Below, piece by piece: positions 10,133 through 50,421 of a stretch of DNA of 64,000 nucleotides. Numbering within the stretch: the stretch's first letter is position 1; each line of letters begins with the position of its first letter. Location of the stretch: the IMG/VR virus record IMGVR_UViG_3300042508_000428; one strand, written 5' to 3'. Both the position numbers and the translations under genes were made by a program. Source of the stretch: a virus. The notes beneath the pieces are model-generated. The model saw only the letters and a program-made list of their open reading frames with translations, ran no database searches and was not told the DNA's origin.

Positions 10133-10442
10133 TCTGCTTAGATTTAAAAGCAAAGTTGATAAAAACATTCCATTTATTGTAAAGTTCAAGAGCGATGGTT
10201 GTCCAATCTGTGTTGATCTTGAACCAGATTTCCAAGCAGTTGCTCAATCATTCCCACAGTTAGGCTTCTACGACGTAGATATAAACGAAGAGGAAGACCT
10301 AGCAGATCTTTTTATTGAAGACGGAGTTCCGACACTTTATTACATTAAAGGAAAACACTTCAAAGAATTACCATATCCTCAAAATGGATTTGACAAAGAT
10401 TCTCTAACCTCAGTTATCAAAGATATTTTAAATGGAAAATAA
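10113..10442 (+). CDS. Thioredoxin-like protein
   Basis: GCPIC redox motif, cis-Pro GVPT. Confidence 0.85.
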   Translation: MKTKKLDLLRFKSKVDKNIPFIVKFKSDGCPICVDLEPDFQAVAQSFPQLGFYDVDINEEEDLADLFIEDGVPTLYYIKGKHFKELPYPQNGFDKDSLTSVIKDILNGK

Positions 10443-35764: not shown

Positions 35765-36123
35765 GGGTCTGAAATGGTATCGATCGGGTAGAGTTTTATG
35801 ATTATGCAGGACGATGGGGAGCGAGGCATCGTAAAAACGCTTAAATGTTTAATTGCCAACGACAACGTTGCTTTTGATTACGCCGTAGCGGCTTAAATCA
35901 CGGAGTCTCCAAACACTCTGTAAAATAAGTTTGGATAGGTTGGAATCTTATCGAAAACAAGATTCATCGGCTTTTCTAACTGGTTTTGCCCTGAATAAAT
36001 CAGTATGAAGTCCCTGTAACCCAGGTGTTTTGTCAAGGGTAGGTTGGGTGCTTGACTATTCCTGTGAATGAGTAATCATAAAAACTATGTGAGACGCGGG
36101 TTCGACTCCCGCCAGATCCACCA
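35765..36123 (+). ncRNA. ssrA: tmRNA (one-piece), tag ANDNVAFDYAVAA at 35855-35896
   Basis: GGGTCTG..TGGTATCGA 5' end, GCGGG-TTCGACT-CCCGC T arm, CAGATCC-ACCA 3' end with G3:U, tag ending in AA-stop. Confidence 0.95.
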
Positions 36124-41401: not shown

Positions 41402-43144
41402 CGATGGTTCACAGAGAAGGATTCATTTCAGCAGATATTAGTGAAATGTGGGCAGGTTATTATGCTCACTTGGTTACGGAATGGAAGGATGGAAAAAGTG
41501 AAGAGCGATCCATCCCTTGTCGAACGAAAGAAGAAGCAGAAGAGATTGTTGAAAAATTTCTAACAGGAGAATACAATGCCGAGGGTTAAAGCAGTTAAAC
41601 AAAAGAAACTTACAGTTGCCGAACTCAAACGGCGAATGACAGAGGGAGCAGTATTGACCATGGTTGATTTCCATGGAACTCCAGTTAAAAAGCGAAGAGT
41701 TGTTGCTGGCATCTCAACCACTTTTGTTAAATTTAGTGGGGATGAAATTAAAGAAGGTCAATATTCATATTTGAATTGGCCGAAATCAACCGAGTTGACA
41801 GGAAATGACGAAGGGTTTACAATCTCTCTCAAGTATGGAGCAGTCCGATATGTCTGGGGAGAACCAAAGACCGAAGACAACGAAAACCCTGAGAATCAGG
41901 AATAGCGAACCAAAAGATCGCAAAGATATTCTCATTATAGAGAAAGTTTGGTATTGGAAAGAACTCACTCATAGAGATCCAGAAACTGGTCCTGCTTACT
42001 CTTATTGTTCATTTTATAAAGAAACTCTTGATGTTTGTACAGAGTTTCACACATACTACGAATTAGGATTTCAAGTAAGGGAACCAAAATGAGAGAAGAA
42101 CTCGAAAACAAATTGTATGAAAAGTATCCCAAACTCTTTGCCCAAAGGAACCTTCCTGATACGATTAGTCTTATGTCGTATGGGATTGGTGTTGGTGATG
42201 GTTGGTATAACATTATGAATGTCCTTTGCTGGACGATTCAAAATCATGTTGATTACCAGCAGAGAAAGAATCCAGAATACAAACAGGTTGAGTTCTTCCA
42301 GATCAAGGAAAAGTTTGGTGGTCTGCGAGTTTATACCAGCGGTGCCGATGAAGTAGTTAATAACCTAATCGTTTTTGCCGAGAACATGGCAATTGTTACT
42401 TGCGAACAATGCGGAAACCCTGGGAAGATTAGATACACCAGTTGGAATACTTGTCGGTGTGATGAATGTCAGAAGAAGTATTGCGATCAAAGAGGAATCA
42501 AAGATGAAGAAGAAGATGAACAAGATGACTGATACTGATTCAGTTTTCGCAGAAAAGGTAGTGAAACGAAAGAAACCAAAGAAGCAGATTGTTTCTAAGG
42601 AATCGAAGTCCAGCGGAGACAAAGAAGATGATCTAATCGAAATCTATGATGTTGACGATTTGGATGTTGATCTTGGTTATTATCGTGATGTTGCTTCGTC
42701 CATGCGAGATTGGTAAAAGGTAGTAGACATATAGTGGGATAGTACTACTCCACCCCACTACTACACCCCTATACCCCTGCCCGCATATACGAGAGAGAGG
42801 GCGATATGTCAAATTATTCCGTGGCAAACAATATTCATGGTATAAAAGAAAAAATCGAAAACGGAATAACTATCTTGTATGATGAATACGAATATGAGGT
42901 TGGAGACATTGTTTTAACCGCTCCACATGTTTGGTACATGTATAAAATTTTATCTGGTTATAAAACAGCAAGTAATGAAGTATTATTTGTAGTCTCGTCT
43001 AAGGAAAAACCTATTGAATCATCATCACATATGATTCGGGATCACAGATACTCTTATAAAATAGTTGCTCTGGAGAATCCAAGAATTGTTCTTGATTATT
43101 TAAGATATGAAGAGTTAATACCTTTAAAACTTAATAAAGATTAG
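41398..43144 (+). other. Small hypothetical ORFs incl. 41576-41905, 42089-42532 (QIKEKFGGLRVY conserved phage motif), about 42504-42716 and 42806-43144
   Basis: ORF track. Confidence 0.6.
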
Positions 43145-43318
43145 AACTTAATAAAGATTAATAGTTCTATTTATTTGATTGTTGAATACTTTATTACTTA
43201 ATAATCATTCTCGATAAAGTAGGCATTTAACTTCCTCAGCATATTCCGCTGAAAGCATATGTGACACTGAAAAAAAAGATCTTTATGCCTCACTTTGTAT
43301 ATGAGGGACTGAAAGCCA

Positions 43319-43976
43319 AACGGCAGACTGAGAGGTCTTGACGCCAGCAAACAGATCGGGTAAGATACCTAAGTCAAAGCGAGAGACCTGCGCGGTTTCT
43401 CGAAACGGCAAACGGCAAACCGGGGAACGCGAGACTGCGAGGTCTTGACAACCGTTCCAAGTTGTGGTAAGCTACTAAGGTCAACGCGGGAAACGGGCTT
43501 CGCGCTCTGAAACCGCAAACGCTCCTTGAAAACCGAGTAGATTCGCAAACGTGATACTGCGAGGGCTTGACAACCGAATCTGGTTGTGGTAGACTACTAA
43601 ACGCGGAATGGTTCCGCAAGGAGGCGAAATGTCGATTACGAATGACGCACTGAAGGGTATTGTTCTTGGTCTGACGATTGCCAAATTGGTTATTCTGCTG
43701 AACGGCTAACTGAACCGAAACGTGAGACCGCGAGGTATTGACAGCGGTTCCGAGTTGTGGTAAGATCCTGACTGTGACGGCGACCTGAGCGGTTGCCGAG
43801 ATTAAGAAACGCGGTACTGAGAAACGCGATACTGCGAGGGCTTGACAACGGTTCGAAGTTGTGGTAAACTCCTGAATGTGAGCGAGCCTGAGCGGTTCGC
43901 GAAACGACGGAGAGAAGCAGAAATCGGAAACGTGATACTGCAAGCTCTTGACAAGCGAATCTACTTGGTGTACAAT
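43319..43976 (+). promoter_or_regulatory. Array of six tandem sigma70 promoters, each with a conserved 19-nt upstream element
   Basis: TTGAC(A/G) at 43338, 43445, 43567, 43738, 43842, 43948, all N17 to TAAGAT/TAAGCT/TAGACT/TAAGAT/TAAACT/TACAAT. Confidence 0.9.
43629..43709 (+). CDS. 26-aa hydrophobic peptide MSITNDALKGIVLGLTIAKLVILLNG
   Basis: AGGAGG RBS 4-5 nt upstream, directly downstream of promoter P3. Confidence 0.6.
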   Translation: MSITNDALKGIVLGLTIAKLVILLNG

Positions 43977-43988
43977 CCCTAAGTCGGC

Positions 43989-44038
43989 GGTGAGCTTCGC
44001 GTTCACCCACTCCGCATCGGATCTTTGATAACTGAATA
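43989..44038 (+). promoter_or_regulatory. boxB-like hairpin plus rrn-type boxA-like antitermination element
   Basis: GGTGA-GCTTCGCGT-TCACC then GATCTTTGATAACTGAATA. Confidence 0.65.
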
Positions 44039-44166
44039 ACGATTGCGAGCACAGAGTTGCTCTGCAAAGATGATGGACTGCCGTGGTCTGCGAAGTCACG
44101 AGACCTTCCACATCGCAATCAAGACGACACGCAATAAGTGCGTGACGTAGAGTGAGTACGATTAAT

Positions 44167-44240
44167 CCGCCTTTAGCTCAGTTGGATAGAGCATCTGCCT
44201 TCTAAGCAGAGGGTCGCAAGTTCGAGTCTTGCAAGGCGGG
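44167..44240 (+). tRNA. tRNA-Arg(TCT), CCA not encoded
   Basis: TCTGC-CTTCTAA-GCAGA; CCGCCTT/AAGGCGG. Confidence 0.93.
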
Positions 44241-44282
44241 CCGAGTAAGTGTGAAGCAAACCCCTAACCATGCGAGGTTACA

Positions 44283-45098
44283 ATGAGCACGAACACCAAG
44301 ATCGGAAATTTCCTCTACACGAACGCTGACTTGCCGTTCTATTCGCAAGTCCTGTCGATCCTGAACGAAAACCCCAAGGGTGCGTCGTTCATCACTGTTG
44401 CGGGTAAACCGCAAATCATGTCGCAGTTCAACAACGATGTTGCTCGTTCGCAACAGAAGGTCAAGTCGATCCTGTCGAGTCTGCGTATGCGTTCGGTTAT
44501 CTTTGAGACTCAGCAACCCGGAAGTTCGTTCTCGGTTTACAAGATTGCGGATAAGGATGTGGCCTTGACGCTAATCTCTGAGGGTGGTAAGATTGTTGAA
44601 AGGTTGGTGCAGCGTACCGCTGACTGCGCTAATACTGAAAAGGTTTCGGCGGTTGTTTCCAATATCAATACCAATACCAAGAAGGTGAATACCATGGCTA
44701 CCAAGACTGCTACCAAGAAGGCTCCTCGTTTGTTCGTTAACCCTGAGACCAGCAAGGTTGAGCCGTTTGGCGCTGGTCGTCCGTCCAAGGCAAAGTTGGC
44801 GTTCGAGTGCAACGCCGATGGTCAGTATCTCAATCCGCAGGCGGCGCTTGCGTTCGCTCAACAGGGTGGCAAGTCGGAAGATAAGCTGACCAAGGCTGAG
44901 TTGCTCGATCTGCTCCGTAAGGTTCGCGCCGAGCGTGACGAGGCAATCGCCGCTCGCGACACTCTCGCCGGTGTCCTCGGTTCGCTGAATACCGCTTCGG
45001 TTGACGCTGAAGCGGATTCGGATGACGGCGATGACCTCGATCTCGATGCTGAGTCGGTCGATGCCGATGACGAGATTGAGGCGACCGACGCCGAGTAG
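44283..45098 (+). CDS. Early protein with GRP (AT-hook-like) motif, coiled coil and highly acidic tail
   Basis: GAGG RBS; strongly biased GC-richer codon use; tail DAEADSDDGDDLDLDAESVDADDEIEATDAE. Confidence 0.8.
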   Translation: MSTNTKIGNFLYTNADLPFYSQVLSILNENPKGASFITVAGKPQIMSQFNNDVARSQQKVKSILSSLRMRSVIFETQQPGSSFSVYKIADKDVALTLISEGGKIVERLVQRTADCANTEKVSAVVSNINTNTKKVNTMATKTATKKAPRLFVNPETSKVEPFGAGRPSKAKLAFECNADGQYLNPQAALAFAQQGGKSEDKLTKAELLDLLRKVRAERDEAIAARDTLAGVLGSLNTASVDAEADSDDGDDLDLDAESVDADDEIEATDAE

Positions 45099-45104
45099 TC
45101 AAAC

Positions 45105-45386
45105 GGTGGCTTGCGATAGACCCCAAACAGAATGGGGTTCAATCAACGGTTTCCCGCTGTAGGGAAATGCAGTTGGACGCAAGCCACCATTCGCGGTGTG
45201 GTTCCACCGATTGGAAGTGAACCCATCCCGCTGTGGTTGAACAGCACAGCAGGCGACGGTTACGCCGATTGGAAGCTAACCCATCCAACCGTGGATGACA
45301 AGCACGGCTACTTGCACAATCGTCTAAATGGAAAGTGCGCGTGAATATACGCGTGATGCGGGTTCGACTCCCGCTTGTGCAAGCCA
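45105..45386 (+). ncRNA. Putative multi-domain ncRNA with two CGATTGGAA-loop hairpins and a 3' tRNA-like domain
   Basis: 11-bp stem 45105-15/45178-88; repeated hairpins; T arm GCGGG-TTCGACT-CCCGC; 6-nt anticodon loop. Confidence 0.7.
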
Positions 45387-45408
45387 ATCAATAGACAGAG
45401 GTTTCACA

Positions 45409-45954
45409 ATGCTGTTCTGTTTCATTCACAAAGATACCAAGCGGTTCAAACAGTTCTGGATTGAACAGGTAAACCTTAGCGAAAGCATTTACGAATCCGA
45501 AAACCCCAGCGATGTTGCGTTGGTTCGCAAAGTTCAACAAGAAAATGCAAGGCTATTTGATAATCAGGTAAGGGAGTTGCTTCAGCGTGGTTGGGTTCGC
45601 CCATAACACCCAATCAATAGACGGAGGTTCCATATGTTTGATGCAAGCAAGATGACGATTGCTGAGGTTATGCAAAAGGCGCAGGAACACATGATCGCCC
45701 TGCGACAGGAAATCGAAGAGACGGAAGTCAAGTGTAACGATATTAGTGATCGTTGTATGGAACTTGACGATATGGAAAATCGCGATGATGGCGAACTCCA
45801 ACGAATGGACATTCGTCGGTGGGTTATGAACGGCAAACTGGATGACCTCAACGATCAACTGGCCGATACACATCGGGTTGTCGAAATCTTCAGCAAGGTG
45901 GTTTACAATACATCGAATATTCAAGATGTCATCGACGCCATTCGCTCTGTGTAG
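45409..45954 (+). other. Two small early ORFs (45409-45606; 45634-45954 coiled coil)
   Basis: GAGG/GGAGG RBSs. Confidence 0.7.
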
Positions 45955-45970
45955 TGAATAGGTGTTCAAT

Positions 45971-46046
45971 TTCCCGATAGCTCAGTTGGTAGAGCGAGTG
46001 ACTGTTAATCACTTTGTCGTGTGTTCGATTCACACTCGGGGAGCCA
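45971..46046 (+). tRNA. tRNA-Asn(GTT)
   Basis: AGTGA-CTGTTAA-TCACT, GCCA end. Confidence 0.95.
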
Positions 46047-46057
46047 AACGAATAAAT

Positions 46058-46133
46058 GGATCAGTAGCTCAGTCGGTAGAGCAGCGGACTCTTAATCCGT
46101 AGGTCGTGGGTTCGATCCCCTCCTGATCCACCA
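46058..46133 (+). tRNA. tRNA-Lys(CTT)
   Basis: GCGGA-CTCTTAA-TCCGT, ACCA end. Confidence 0.95.
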
Positions 46134-46227
46134 GATACGAATAAACAATAGACGGAGGGAACAAATGATCGTTATTGATTGGCAACTTCGTTCTTGGATC
46201 TACGACGAAAGTTTCTGGGACTAACAA

Positions 46228-46455
46228 ATGCAGGAGGTCATCATGTATGATGTTCACACGAATGAAGAACTGATTGATTTTCATAACAAGCATGATCCTT
46301 TGTTCGCTAGACTGCTACGGGAAACTGAAGTAGAAAAGGACGAGAACAAGTTTCAGATTGGTGTTGCCCTTGTGTCTCTCGTTCTGTCGGGCAAGGTAAA
46401 AATCATTCAGAGTCCACAGGGCGAACTTCTATTCGAGCACCAACTCCCCAACTGA
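46228..46455 (+). CDS. Small hypothetical early protein (true start may be the second Met)
   Basis: GGAGG RBS. Confidence 0.6.
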   Translation: MQEVIMYDVHTNEELIDFHNKHDPLFARLLRETEVEKDENKFQIGVALVSLVLSGKVKIIQSPQGELLFEHQLPN

Positions 46456-46655
46456 TTGAGGTAAATGATGGATGCAACTAAAGTGGTGAAGCAGATCAAG
46501 GACAAGGTTCGTGAAACAGTTGTTCAGGAAAAGGAAGACTGGACTAAAGCGGTTTCTGAATACAAGAAAAGGCAGGAACTTCTAGCGAAGTCGCAAGAGC
46601 AAAGAGTCATTGGTTTCAAGTGGTAGGAACAAACGGGACTAACAATCCCACAATC

Positions 46656-46727
46656 GGCCTTGTCGTCCAAAGGTTAGGACGAGAGACTTTCAATCTCTAA
46701 ATCCGGGTTCGAGTCCCGGCAAGGTCA
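46656..46727 (+). tRNA. tRNA-Glu(TTC), CCA not encoded
   Basis: AGAGA-CTTTCAA-TCTCT; GGCCTTG/CAAGGTC. Confidence 0.92.
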
Positions 46728-46765
46728 CCGATAATGAATAAACAATAGACCGAGCGGAGATACGA

Positions 46766-47356
46766 ATGGATGTTTACACAGAGGCAGAACTGAGAGAGTC
46801 GTTTGCAGACTTCAAGGACTATGCACTGAAAATTGAGAAACGAAACAAGAGGCTTGGATTGAAAAGCCGATTGCCCAACATGCCAGAGGAAGTTAGCGAA
46901 AACATCGCCAAGTTTATCGTTCAGAATCATATGAATGATCAGACTGCGTTGTGGCCCAAGGGCACGAAGGGAAAGGTCAAACTTCCAGGCGATCTCCGTT
47001 CAGATTCATTCGGCAGGCTGGAAGTCAAGTGTTTCACTTCAACTGGCCCGATCTCATTCGGTCCAACCGAAGCATGGGATACGCTACTGTTCCTTGATGC
47101 AACAGATTGGCGGAATGATCGTTTCGTTATGTATGGTGTTTCGCTTGCAAACAATGACCCGCTATGGGAAGCCGTGCAGATTAGCAAGAAGCAAACGTAT
47201 GGCGATCAATGCAAAGCTCAACGTCGCCCACGCATTGGATGGGGTGCGCTGAGTCCACAGATCACATCCAACTGCACAAAGGTATTTGATGGAACGTTTG
47301 ATGAAGTGTTTGTGAATATTCAGCAGACTCAACAGGGGCATAGTTCAGTTGGTTAG
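46766..47356 (+). CDS. Type II restriction endonuclease, R.Bsp6I-like (probable GCNGC)
   Basis: SRLPNMPEEVSE, GD..LEVK PD-(D/E)xK core, SFGP..WDTLLFL, QTYGDQ..RRP, all paralleling R.Bsp6I motifs as recalled. Confidence 0.75.
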   Translation: MDVYTEAELRESFADFKDYALKIEKRNKRLGLKSRLPNMPEEVSENIAKFIVQNHMNDQTALWPKGTKGKVKLPGDLRSDSFGRLEVKCFTSTGPISFGPTEAWDTLLFLDATDWRNDRFVMYGVSLANNDPLWEAVQISKKQTYGDQCKAQRRPRIGWGALSPQITSNCTKVFDGTFDEVFVNIQQTQQGHSSVG

Positions 47357-47410
47357 AGCATCGCTCTGATAAGGCGAAAGTCGGTGGTTCAAGTCCACCT
47401 GCCCCTACCA
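47334..47410 (+). tRNA. tRNA-Ile(GAT)
   Basis: TCGC-TCTGATAAG-GCGA arm, AGGGGCA/TGCCCCT, ACCA; overlaps the last codons of the endonuclease ORF. Confidence 0.92.
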
Positions 47411-47662
47411 CACACGAAGGAGACAACATGACGTTCAAATTGAAAGTGCCGACCTACAATAAAGTAATCACACATTTCAGCGGTGGCTTGGTTCATCGAA
47501 CAGTATCCAGCCGTTACAGTCCAAAGTGGGTTTGGTTCATTCAATAGACTGCGGGAGGATAGAATGGATTGGTTGCTTGTGATCGGAGTCACTTTCGTTT
47601 GGGCTTCCTTCACTCTTTATATGTCCGAGAAAGAATAAACACCTAAACAGATAGGACGAACA

Positions 47663-47758
47663 ATGAATACCTCTCAACTGCTTCTGCTTATGCTTTCCAT
47701 CCTTCCGCTCACCATGTCCATTGGTTTGGTGGCAACGAAGGTTGAGAATCGAGCTTGA
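47663..47758 (+). CDS. 31-aa hydrophobic peptide MNTSQLLLLMLSILPLTMSIGLVATKVENRA
   Basis: AGGA RBS; single TM helix. Confidence 0.5.
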   Translation: MNTSQLLLLMLSILPLTMSIGLVATKVENRA

Positions 47759-47795
47759 CAGAAATCGTGGGACTTGCTATAATCATTCCCACGAT
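47755..47795 (+). promoter_or_regulatory. sigma70-type promoter with 9-bp inverted repeat around the -10
   Basis: TTGACA-N17-TATAAT; ATCGTGGGA/TCCCACGAT. Confidence 0.85.
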
Positions 47796-47796
47796 C

Positions 47797-47873
47797 GCTA
47801 GGGCAACCACGAACCCAATGGTATTAGGCATGAACCCGATTGGAATGTACGGTTCTGTAAGTCCTGCCCTAGC
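47797..47873 (+). ncRNA. Small structured RNA with a third CGATTGGAA loop
   Basis: GCTAGGGCA/TGCCCTAGC closing stem; GAACC-CGATTGGAATGTAC-GGTTC. Confidence 0.55.
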
Positions 47874-47879
47874 ACATTC

Positions 47880-47957
47880 GCCAGCATAGCTTAATTGGAA
47901 TAGAGCCAATCCTTGGTATGGATTGTGATGGTGGTTCGAGTCCACCTGCTGGCACCA
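47880..47957 (+). tRNA. tRNA-Thr(GGT)
   Basis: AATCC-TTGGTAT-GGATT, GCCAGCA/TGCTGGC, ACCA. Confidence 0.9.
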
Positions 47958-47981
47958 CGAACAATCGTGAATGGGGGAAAC

Positions 47982-48992
47982 ATGAATGGAAATGATCTAA
48001 TCGAGTTGTTTGAATATGCATATGATTACTGCGAGGACAACGACTATGATCCATCCGTTGATGTTTCACGTTCAAACGATGATGAGATCGGTTTCGATTA
48101 TTCAGATACTCTTGACCACCTGTGGGCAGGATAGATAAACGGAGATAGCGAATGTCTTTCTATACAATGTATGCCCTATGTGTGCTGATTACGACTTGCT
48201 ACGTCGCGATTGATCTATCAGAGAATACGAAGGATTATTCGCAATACAAAGCAAGGGATAAACTCTTTGCCATTTCTGTTCTCGGTCTATTCTGGCCCGT
48301 GCTATTCGTTGGGGTTGTGGTTGGCTTTCTATACAGCGCAATCAAATCATTAAACGGAGGTGTCAAATGATCGCATGGATGCGCCGTCATATCGAACAAT
48401 ACAAGTTCCTTGCGGAAGCAAGAGGACAGCATTACGATCGTTTGTATATTGATCAGAATGGTAAGCTATGTCGCGAACATCTATTCGTGGAAGAAGAAGG
48501 GTGGAACGACGACCAGTATCCCTATGACATTGATGACGATGAAGAATGGGACTACTCCGATGAAATGGAAGACGGAAGCCTATAACGAATAGATGAACCA
48601 TAACAACCAATCGGGAGGAATAAACATGGCACTGGAAGATAAGAAGAGTTTGTATTTGATCCTTGACCTAGCACGTTACCTTGCGGATAGAGAAAGAGCA
48701 AACACTAGAATGAATGAGGGTGAGTTTTCAATGGCAGAGAACATTGCAAGACACACACTCAATCTACTGAGGGAGGAACAATCGCATGACTAGGAACGAA
48801 CTCATTCTCATTATCGGTCTCAGCATTGTTGTATTCATTCCCATGGGATGGATGGCATACCACATGCACAAACTAAACCAGTGGGTAGAGAAAGTAGATA
48901 AGCAATCAGTCCTGCTGGATAAACGAGTAACCTATCCCTATCCAAAGACACCAGAACCACCTAGACCAAAGAAGAAGTCAGAGGGTAAGTAA
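47982..48992 (+). other. Five small early ORFs (47982-48134, 48152-48370 membrane, 48367-48585, 48593-48793, 48786-48992 membrane)
   Basis: RBS-preceded, coupled ORFs. Confidence 0.6.
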
Positions 48993-49791
48993 ATGGTGTT
49001 AGATAGATTGCACTATCACATACATTCACACATGGTATACGAATAGGTAATCAGTAGATAGCAGGGGAGATAGAGAAGCCTAAACGATGCTGTTAAATAA
49101 TCGTGGTAGGAGAGAATAGATAATGGGCAGGAAATGGATGACCAGTGAACCAGCCAAATACACTATCCCGACCTGTTGACAACCATCGTTAAATGCGTTA
49201 TTATGCATGTGGTACTGCTCCCCTGCTGGATTACATAGCAACACTCCTCTACCACGGGTAGGTGAACAGCATAGGCGGAGGCACCCAAACAGTGGGTATG
49301 GACTAGACCCCTGGATCTGTATTATCAAGCATGACCCCTCCGCCATAGGGTATCACACTTCATCTATTCAGTCAAGGGTAGATTATGGGTGGACAACGAT
49401 TACGTTTCTTTCTAACACCCAGCGAAAGTTGAATACCTCAGGGCACAACGCATTATATAACAAACGGTTAAGGTTGTCAACCAAACGTGTGATAAGGTTC
49501 TATCAGCGCCTAGCGAAATGTTAATCAACCCTGTTTAAACATTGCAGACCAGCATAAGGAATATTCATTTCGATTAAATGATTAATGAATAAACGTTTAA
49601 CAGCAAAGCATTGCAGCAAAGTCAAACATCGTTCAGGGCACAAACAATGCCCCCTCCCCCTCCCCCTTCTAAACCGAATGGAAACCGGAATTTATGTTTC
49701 AAGGCGCAGTATCGCGAATAAACGGTTTGCTTGACCCTCTTTCAACGCGCCTATAATTTTCCCAGATTTGAACTTTTTTGTCAAGTCTCAC

Positions 49792-49799
49792 ACTATTTA
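49792..49799 (+). promoter_or_regulatory. ACTATTTA putative late promoter element (further copies at 50951, 51656, 55540, 58057, 62332)
   Basis: Intergenic copies upstream of late-type genes. Confidence 0.65.
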
Positions 49800-49803
49800 A
49801 TCT

Positions 49804-50421
49804 ATGATGAAATCATTATTAACAGAGTGGCGTAATTTTATTCTCAAAGAGAATTGGATTCGAATCAAAGAAGAACCAGAAACAAGAGACTCAGATCTTT
49901 CTCCTACAACTTGTGCTTATAAGGGTCAAAAAGGAACTTGCATGAAGTTCCTTCAAAAGAAGAATGGTAAGAAAATTGTTGTAACAATGTTTGAACCAGA
50001 TCCTAAACAAGCAAGTGTTGCAAAACAAGAATCATACTTTAAACCAGAAAATATAAAAAAAGTTTTGGAAATGCTAAATGATTCAAAATCAATTTTTGCA
50101 TATGAACAAGAATCGGGATCTGAAATCTTGGAACCAGAACAATATCTTAAAGAATTAAAAGCAAAGTGTCCAAGAGATCCAAGAACTGCTTATAATTATG
50201 CACAAATTAATAATACTATATTAATTGCTATTAATCAAGAATACAATAAATATAAAAAACAATTTCCAAATCAAGAGTATCCAGATTGGGTGGAACAAAA
50301 TATAAACGTTCTTGAACAAAATCTTATTAAAAAATATGTAGGAGCACCTCAAGAAATTCAGAACATAAATTATTTTAGAAATAATGATGATCTTTGTTTA
50401 ACACTAATTGGACTTAAATAA
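49804..50421 (+). CDS. Hypothetical protein with W-tag (MMKSLLTEWRNFILKE)
   Basis: Shared N-terminal motif. Confidence 0.75.
   Translation: MMKSLLTEWRNFILKENWIRIKEEPETRDSDLSPTTCAYKGQKGTCMKFLQKKNGKKIVVTMFEPDPKQASVAKQESYFKPENIKKVLEMLNDSKSIFAYEQESGSEILEPEQYLKELKAKCPRDPRTAYNYAQINNTILIAINQEYNKYKKQFPNQEYPDWVEQNINVLEQNLIKKYVGAPQEIQNINYFRNNDDLCLTLIGLK

Follow-up and report, generated by a model that had tools for sequence, protein, structure and literature searches.

The early operon of the phage described here carries a 19-nt element, GATCTTTGATAACTGAATA, that is identical to boxA sites of bacterial rRNA (rrn) operons. We think it reasonably probable that this element is a working rrn-type boxA, transcribed from all six of the tandem early promoters that precede it. 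Since the 19-base signal is identical to the rrn boxA, the phage probably borrows the rRNA anti-termination machinery of its host. The most likely function of the boxA would be to load the host NusB–S10 and thereby form an rrn-type, Rho-resistant elongation complex. From the sequence, we infer Nus-factor binding, anti-termination, and independence from a phage cofactor.

The element lies in a 64,000-nt stretch of DNA, hereafter called the window, which comes from a 77.5-kb IMG/VR virus record (IMGVR_UViG_3300042508_000428) with a CheckV completeness of 37% and a GC content of about 38%. The record encodes a DnaE-type polymerase, GroEL, an amidase endolysin, tmRNA, and at least 15 tRNAs. None of the named phages is close, as the DnaE identity is below 31% and the DNA matches are confined to tRNA. 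The features that the original prediction had read as an imitation of an rRNA operon—the last promoter, the hairpin, boxA, the closed leader, tRNA-Arg, and the downstream tRNAs and ORFs—were all recovered in place. All of the features of the locus described below are on the + strand.

The boxA sequence and its counterparts in rRNA operons

The boxA occupies positions 44020–44038, with its core at 44022–44036, and was assigned from its exact rrn identity and its conservation. It is located at about +38 from the inferred start of the last promoter, P6, and a 12-nt linker separates it from the preceding hairpin. The boxA is unpaired in the centroid fold. The first tRNA and the first ORF begin 128 nt and 244 nt downstream, respectively.

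Where else does this sequence occur? In a set of 185,579 bacterial and archaeal species, each represented by a single genome, the exact 19-mer is present at 56 loci, as compared to a chance expectation of about 4 (uniform composition, 596 Gb, both strands). The matches were positioned against 16S and 23S landmarks, which were located by primer-site motifs and by BLAST searches against rRNA segments. Thirty of the 56 matches are rrn leader or 16S–23S spacer sites, distributed over 21 genomes and at least five phyla, and all 30 are in the sense orientation. Sixteen of these lie 53–255 nt before the 16S 5′ end, in Lachnospira eligens, two Eubacterium species, and MAGs of Blautia, Armatimonadota, delta-proteobacteria, and one unclassified organism; one of the 16 is cut by a contig end and was assigned via its identical flank. 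The other 14 lie 84–162 nt before the 23S, in Myxococcota/“Deltaproteobacteria” (nine), Acidobacteriota (four), and Planctomycetota (one). No Rfam RNA was found near any of the nine examined among the remaining 26 matches, which are a mix of chance matches, contig-end cases, and possibly non-rrn boxA sites. Five contigs of a Lachnospira sp. MAG (L017, L021, L027, L029, and L044) start 29–50 nt before an exact 19-mer and have identical flanks, with no rRNA or other Rfam RNA downstream of it (Rfam was run on L017 only). These contigs look like a multi-copy, non-rrn repeat that carries boxA.

By its sequence, the 19-mer is thus a genuine rrn-type boxA, as originally predicted, matching the leader and spacer boxA of several phyla at 19/19 positions, and its position after a 5′ hairpin, which had also been predicted, follows the rrn order. 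The window contains no excess of loose copies of the 15-nt core (6 found versus 6.3 expected); the boxA finding is weak on the within-window statistics and strong on the external evidence. One copy of the core with a single mismatch, TCTTTGATAACTGAG, is located on the minus strand at 10409–10423, antisense and directly before a + strand ATG. This copy is unexpected by simple odds, and there is no sign of transcription in that direction. AT-rich repeats at 43122–43209, with 76% likeness to the boxA region, were rejected as an ORF end plus a low-complexity spacer.

The always-sense orientation of the rrn matches also bears on the possibility that the sequence acts as DNA, as an operator or roadblock at +37 to +55 by which a phage or host repressor silences the early array. 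A single site directly after the last promoter could block all six promoters, and GATC is present in the element. Nevertheless, we regard such an operator as quite improbable: the sequence lacks dyad symmetry, it is absent from the other promoters in the window, the relatives do not keep its GATC (they have GGTC, GAAC, and AGCT), and its always-sense identity with the transcribed rrn boxA would have to be a coincidence.

Searches of viral contigs for the exact boxA or promoter-box patterns yielded only chance matches in unrelated contigs. The short-query BLAST matches in named phages (two Mycobacterium phage records, Staphylococcus phage records, and others) were likewise dismissed as chance, and are within or beside structural or lysis genes. 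The phage element does not match the gammaproteobacterial boxA consensus, GYTCTTTAANA (PMC5725501), and this mismatch argues against a gammaproteobacterial host.

Promoter array, folded leader, and downstream unit

The six tandem sigma70-type promoters are predicted at 43318–43979, from the repeat families D1/D2 and a promoter scan, which gave matches at 43338, 43567, 43738, 43842, and 43948. The array repeat unit, AAACGnGAnACTGCGAGGnCTTGAC-N17-TAnnnT, is present in six copies, and an upstream box, AAACGnGAnACTGCGAGG, is conserved in each of the array promoters. The last promoter, P6, consists of TTGACA at 43948–43953, a 17-nt spacer, and TACAAT at 43971–43976, and agrees with the consensus at 11 of 12 positions. 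Judging from the position of the −10 element, the P6 transcript would start near 43982–43983. All six predicted promoters read into the boxA. The sole ORF inside the array (43629–43709) encodes 26 aa and is hydrophobic, by reading its sequence.

Two other kinds of element are interspersed among the promoters. A GC-rich hairpin with a UGAGC or UGCGC pentaloop occurs within about 15 nt after most of the array promoters (43381–43910), and the post-promoter hairpins are kept in the relatives with a YNAGC-GG loop. They may be 5′-end stabilisers or protein-binding sites. In addition, a weaker boxA-like word, GCTCCTTGAAAACCGAG, is located at 43520–43536 between promoters 2 and 3. The word is identical in the related contig L145, while the version in the relative G003 is GCTCTTGGAAATCGAG. 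In lineage D, GCTCTTTGACAACTGGG stands after the first promoter in its place, and the word part CCGAGTAG recurs directly before the −35 boxes; therefore, GCTCCTTGAAAACCGAG may be a promoter-upstream element, rather than a boxA.

The transcript begins with a 5′ hairpin in the boxB position (43989–44007), identified from the sequence and the fold, with a 7-bp stem that includes one G-U pair and a 5-nt loop. Its helix is kept in the relatives, and four of six pairs are changed on both sides. Following the boxA, a conserved folded leader RNA of about 80 nt extends from 44041 to 44120, as defined by RNAalifold and pair counts. It contains three helices: P1 (44041–44046 with 44115–44120, GATTGC/GCAATC), P2 (44047–44052 with 44056–44062), and P3 (44082–44089 with 44094–44100). 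In the MFE fold, GATTGCGA (44041–44048) pairs with TCGCAATC (44113–44120). The junction is conserved and unpaired, with CTGCAA(A)GA and CTGCAAGA. A small hairpin, present in both the MFE and centroid folds, lies between the leader domain and the tRNA (44125–44150), and L145 has a hairpin of another sequence at the same place.

The RNAalifold analysis of five sequences yielded four helices—the 5′ hairpin, P1, P2, and P3—in which 12 of the 25 pairs are changed on both sides. For example, lineage D has G-C in place of an A-U pair of P1, and the sequence of P2 is GAGCA/TGCTC, GAGAA/TTCTC, or GAAGTC/GACTTC, depending on the lineage. In the leader helices, 93.3% of the cells are paired, as compared to 31–42% in the slid controls. 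None of the 500 shuffles reaches the observed covariation score, in a test limited by the small number of related sequences. The fold of the single sequence is unremarkable (z = −1.18). Since the helices covary in the relatives, the multibranch leader that had been noticed in the sequence is real and conserved, whatever its role. No Rfam family matches this leader at either the gathering or the permissive thresholds, and the domain is a candidate for a new phage leader or small-RNA family. Its homologues were located at 2348–2528 of L145, 1330–1556 of L097, and 1577–1878 of L103, each on the minus strand.

These properties of the leader raise the question of whether the conserved block works without Nus-factor anti-termination. 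The put RNA of HK022 is a structured RNA just after the promoter, and alone makes the polymerase terminator-resistant. Similarly, the block could be an RNA processing or folding unit, such as a small stable RNA or a put-type polymerase-binding RNA, in which case its rrn likeness would reflect a shared processing or chaperone factor. A conserved leader directly 3′ of the boxA, with compensatory changes and no Rfam family, is what such a unit would present, and the conserved AAYTGAA extension exceeds the 8 nt recognised by NusB–NusE in the crystal structure (PMC3177189). However, the 19/19 identity with rrn boxA across phyla would be left unexplained, and the boxA itself is unpaired. We therefore consider a pure processing or folding unit unlikely, although worth keeping in mind. 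The processing and anti-termination roles are compatible, since the rrn complex also chaperones RNA folding (PMC8632103).

The first gene of the operon is tRNA-Arg(TCT), at 44167–44242 (ARAGORN; Rfam RF00005, 70 bits), which is syntenic in all of the relatives covering the region. The first ORF, at 44283–45098, encodes a 271-aa protein that is conserved in the relatives; its core, GRPSK...KLTKAELLDLL, is conserved, and its C-terminal tail is strongly acidic. This protein has 59 homologous protein clusters in metagenomes and belongs to no Pfam or PHROG family; the operon ORFs as a whole gave no family matches. In the remainder of the unit, up to the next consensus promoter (45132–47754), small ORFs alternate with a tRNA-like RNA and the tRNAs for Asn, Lys, Glu, and Ile, and untranslated stretches of about 140–400 nt occur repeatedly. 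Such tRNAs (including tRNA-Thr), the tRNA-like RNA, and the small ORFs extend to about 49.8 kb. The tRNA-like RNA (45312–45386), to which ARAGORN assigns a four-base anticodon (aata) and Rfam a tRNA score of 37 bits, may represent either a tRNA of the frameshift type or a tRNA mimic.

The unit contains untranslated stretches of about 300 nt (from the start to the first ORF), 289, 273, 139, and about 800 nt, and we found no convincing intrinsic terminator on the + strand before 48251. This is a setting where protection from Rho would be useful. The second tRNA/tmRNA cluster of the phage (27–36 kb) is without a boxA, indicating that boxA is no general requirement for the RNA genes of this phage. 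The tmRNA of that cluster, at 35765–36123 with the tag ANDNVAFDYAVAA, had no close match among 30 bacterial tmRNAs, and its likeness to them is limited to the 3′ 31 nt.

The spacing of the boxA also allowed us to consider whether it recruits the Nus factors for repression, as in E. coli suhB, since Nus-dependent repression via a 5′-UTR boxA has been documented (PMC5725501). We find this hard to believe, because suhB and the predicted candidates have the boxA at most about 50 nt from the start codon (PMC5725501), as compared to the 128 nt to the tRNA and 244 nt to the first ORF in the phage, and because the phage boxA stands behind six strong promoters.

Conservation in related phages

A search with DnaE yielded 34 related viral contigs, while the single-protein searches with the 271-aa and 745-aa ORFs retrieved no relatives. 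In G003 (DnaE identity, 77%), a boxA with two mismatches, GAACTTTGATAATTGAATA, follows tandem promoters (four within the 953 nt examined), and downstream of it come a homologous leader, then tRNA-Arg(TCT), and then an ORF homologous to the 271-aa one. In G002 (DnaE identity, 85%), GCTCTATGACAACTGAAAG is at the boxA position, and a second copy, GCTCTTTGACAACTGGG, lies after the first promoter. A pattern based on the leader helices, from which the boxA was left out on purpose, recovered five more metagenome contigs. Two of them, L145 and L158, carry GGTCTTTGATAACTGAATAG, while L177, L179, and L182 are of the G002 type, one with GATAAC. At the same place, the relatives accordingly have the boxA variants GGTCTTTGATAACTGAATAG, GAACTTTGATAATTGAATAC, and GCTCTATGA(C/T)AACTGAAAG.

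Four lineages, three besides the window, thus share one order: promoter array, hairpin, boxA, leader, and tRNA-Arg. The arrays of the relatives contain four to six promoters. G001 and G004 end before the boxA region, according to synteny arithmetic, and the distant relatives G005 (DnaE identity, 59%; one tRNA) and G024 (41%) are without the arrangement. The expectation that a boxA would follow the promoter arrays of related phages therefore holds for all of the close relatives that cover the region.

No other block of the 5′ leader is kept as well as the boxA: 12 of its 19 positions do not vary (11 of 15 in the core), while the hairpin region and the linker have 4 of 25 and 1 of 12 invariant positions, respectively. 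These statistics are thin, with only four phage lineages. The boxA differs by lineage, from CTTTGA to CTATGA and from C to T, and these variants may or may not be tolerated by NusB–S10.

This pattern of conservation must be weighed against the base composition of the region. The GC content is 0.46–0.51 at 44–48 kb, versus about 0.30–0.42 across most other parts of the window. A module whose GC content is about 50%, as compared to about 38% for the phage, might be a functionless relic, passively kept after the capture of a host rrn or tRNA-operon fragment, and bacterial rrn spacers indeed place tRNA genes beside the boxA. Such a relic is very unlikely, since the flanks have diverged almost fully between the lineages while the boxA was kept, and since the surroundings of the boxA resemble no bacterial rrn context retrieved.

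A degenerate boxA scan, with two mismatches allowed in 28 related records, gave mostly noise and was discarded; the recurrent CTACTTGAAAAYTGG encodes an N-terminal LLENW peptide. In G010, G015, G017, and G012 (e.g., L139), many late ORFs start with MK(L/Q)LLENW(R/K)KY, encoded by CTACTTGAAAAYTGG, and these are false boxA-like matches.

Proposed mechanism and known anti-termination systems

Anti-termination by boxA and the Nus factors is textbook knowledge for rRNA operons and, together with the N protein, for lambdoid phages. In rrn operons, the nascent boxA RNA binds NusB–S10, and with NusG, NusA, SuhB, and S4, the polymerase becomes Rho-resistant (PMC13753749, PMC3177189, PMC5725501). How would this system operate on the phage operon? 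We propose that, as the nascent RNA emerges, the 5′ hairpin forms first, and the single-stranded GAUCUUUGAUAACUGAAUA is then exposed. The host NusB–S10 (NusE) would bind this boxA RNA. Together with NusG, NusA, and probably SuhB and S4, it would turn the RNA polymerase into an rrn-type anti-termination complex, which would resist Rho and possibly intrinsic terminators, and elongate fast. The 4–6 kb early unit could thereby be expressed, even though its small ORFs alternate with tRNAs, small RNAs, and long gaps that are not translated. The complex may also aid the folding of the conserved leader RNA and the tRNAs.

A search of five related phage fragments (records 25–62% complete) yielded neither a NusG nor a NusB gene, and thus host factors would be used. 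A phage cofactor may nevertheless take part, given the incompleteness of these records and the lack of family matches for the operon ORFs. Rho is dispensable in some bacteria, and a host of this kind would weaken the anti-Rho rationale.

The phage locus resembles the bacterial rrn signal (boxB hairpin–boxA–boxC) in that the boxA is identical, the hairpin comes first, and the signal is on the sense strand soon after tandem strong promoters and before stable-RNA genes. In contrast, it is phage-borne, and heads an operon of tRNAs, small RNAs, and small ORFs, rather than rRNA. The proposed rrn dress of the operon consequently fits in its tandem promoters, hairpin, and boxA, and fails in that there is no definable boxC and no leader–trailer processing helix of the RNase III type. 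No long-range complement to the leader was found within 43980–49900. Its closing helix is local (44041–44120), and the boxA is instead followed by the local three-helix RNA.

The rrn leader of B. subtilis offers a close parallel. A small 5′ hairpin is directly followed by the boxA-like consensus AUGAUCUUUGAAA, and NusB binding has been observed by NMR (PMC13753749). The phage boxA has GAUCUUUGA in common with this consensus, and a small 5′ hairpin lies directly upstream in both, while the phage has UAA after the GA, where B. subtilis has AAA.

Among phages, the lambdoid nut sites likewise place a boxA in an early transcript to engage the host Nus factors, a role that for the present phage we infer from its sequence. 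In the lambda nut site, the boxA comes before the boxB, its sequence departs from the rrn consensus, and the N protein is needed. Here, the boxA is of the full rrn type, the hairpin precedes it, and no N-like protein was identified among the operon and array ORFs.

Our literature search for boxA in connection with phage tRNA or early operons found no description of such an arrangement, the known cases being rrn, lambdoid nut, suhB, and CRISPR arrays. The distinguishing features of this locus are the six-promoter array and the conserved three-helix leader. On a bolder scheme, which we advance with considerable reserve, a large freshwater phage clade would possess a compound rrn-mimic early unit, in which the array feeds the boxA-loaded host complex and the three-helix leader serves as a new cis partner (put-/boxC-like or a chaperoned small RNA), for N-independent, phage-specific processive anti-termination.

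If the boxA works as proposed, then phages can take over the rRNA transcription mode of the host directly, with no evident protein adaptor, and the escape from Rho of long phage RNA operons with little translation would have an explanation. In uncultured phages, the boxA could also serve as a simple marker by which to recognise early or stable-RNA operons from sequence, and it might point to the host phylum as well.

Outside rRNA operons, a boxA is present in the suhB 5′ UTR (PMC5725501), and gammaproteobacterial CRISPR operons are further targets, according to the citation in PMC13753749. As proposed for the phage, a boxA outside rRNA operons controls the transcription of poorly translated RNA in these cases, which are cellular genes, in contrast to the phage early operon with its six-promoter array. 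Phage operons of mixed RNA content also have a precedent. The tRNA cluster of T4 with the stable RNAs species 1 and 2, for which we know of no report of an rrn-type boxA leader, similarly combines tRNAs and small stable RNAs, the latter presumably excised by host RNases.
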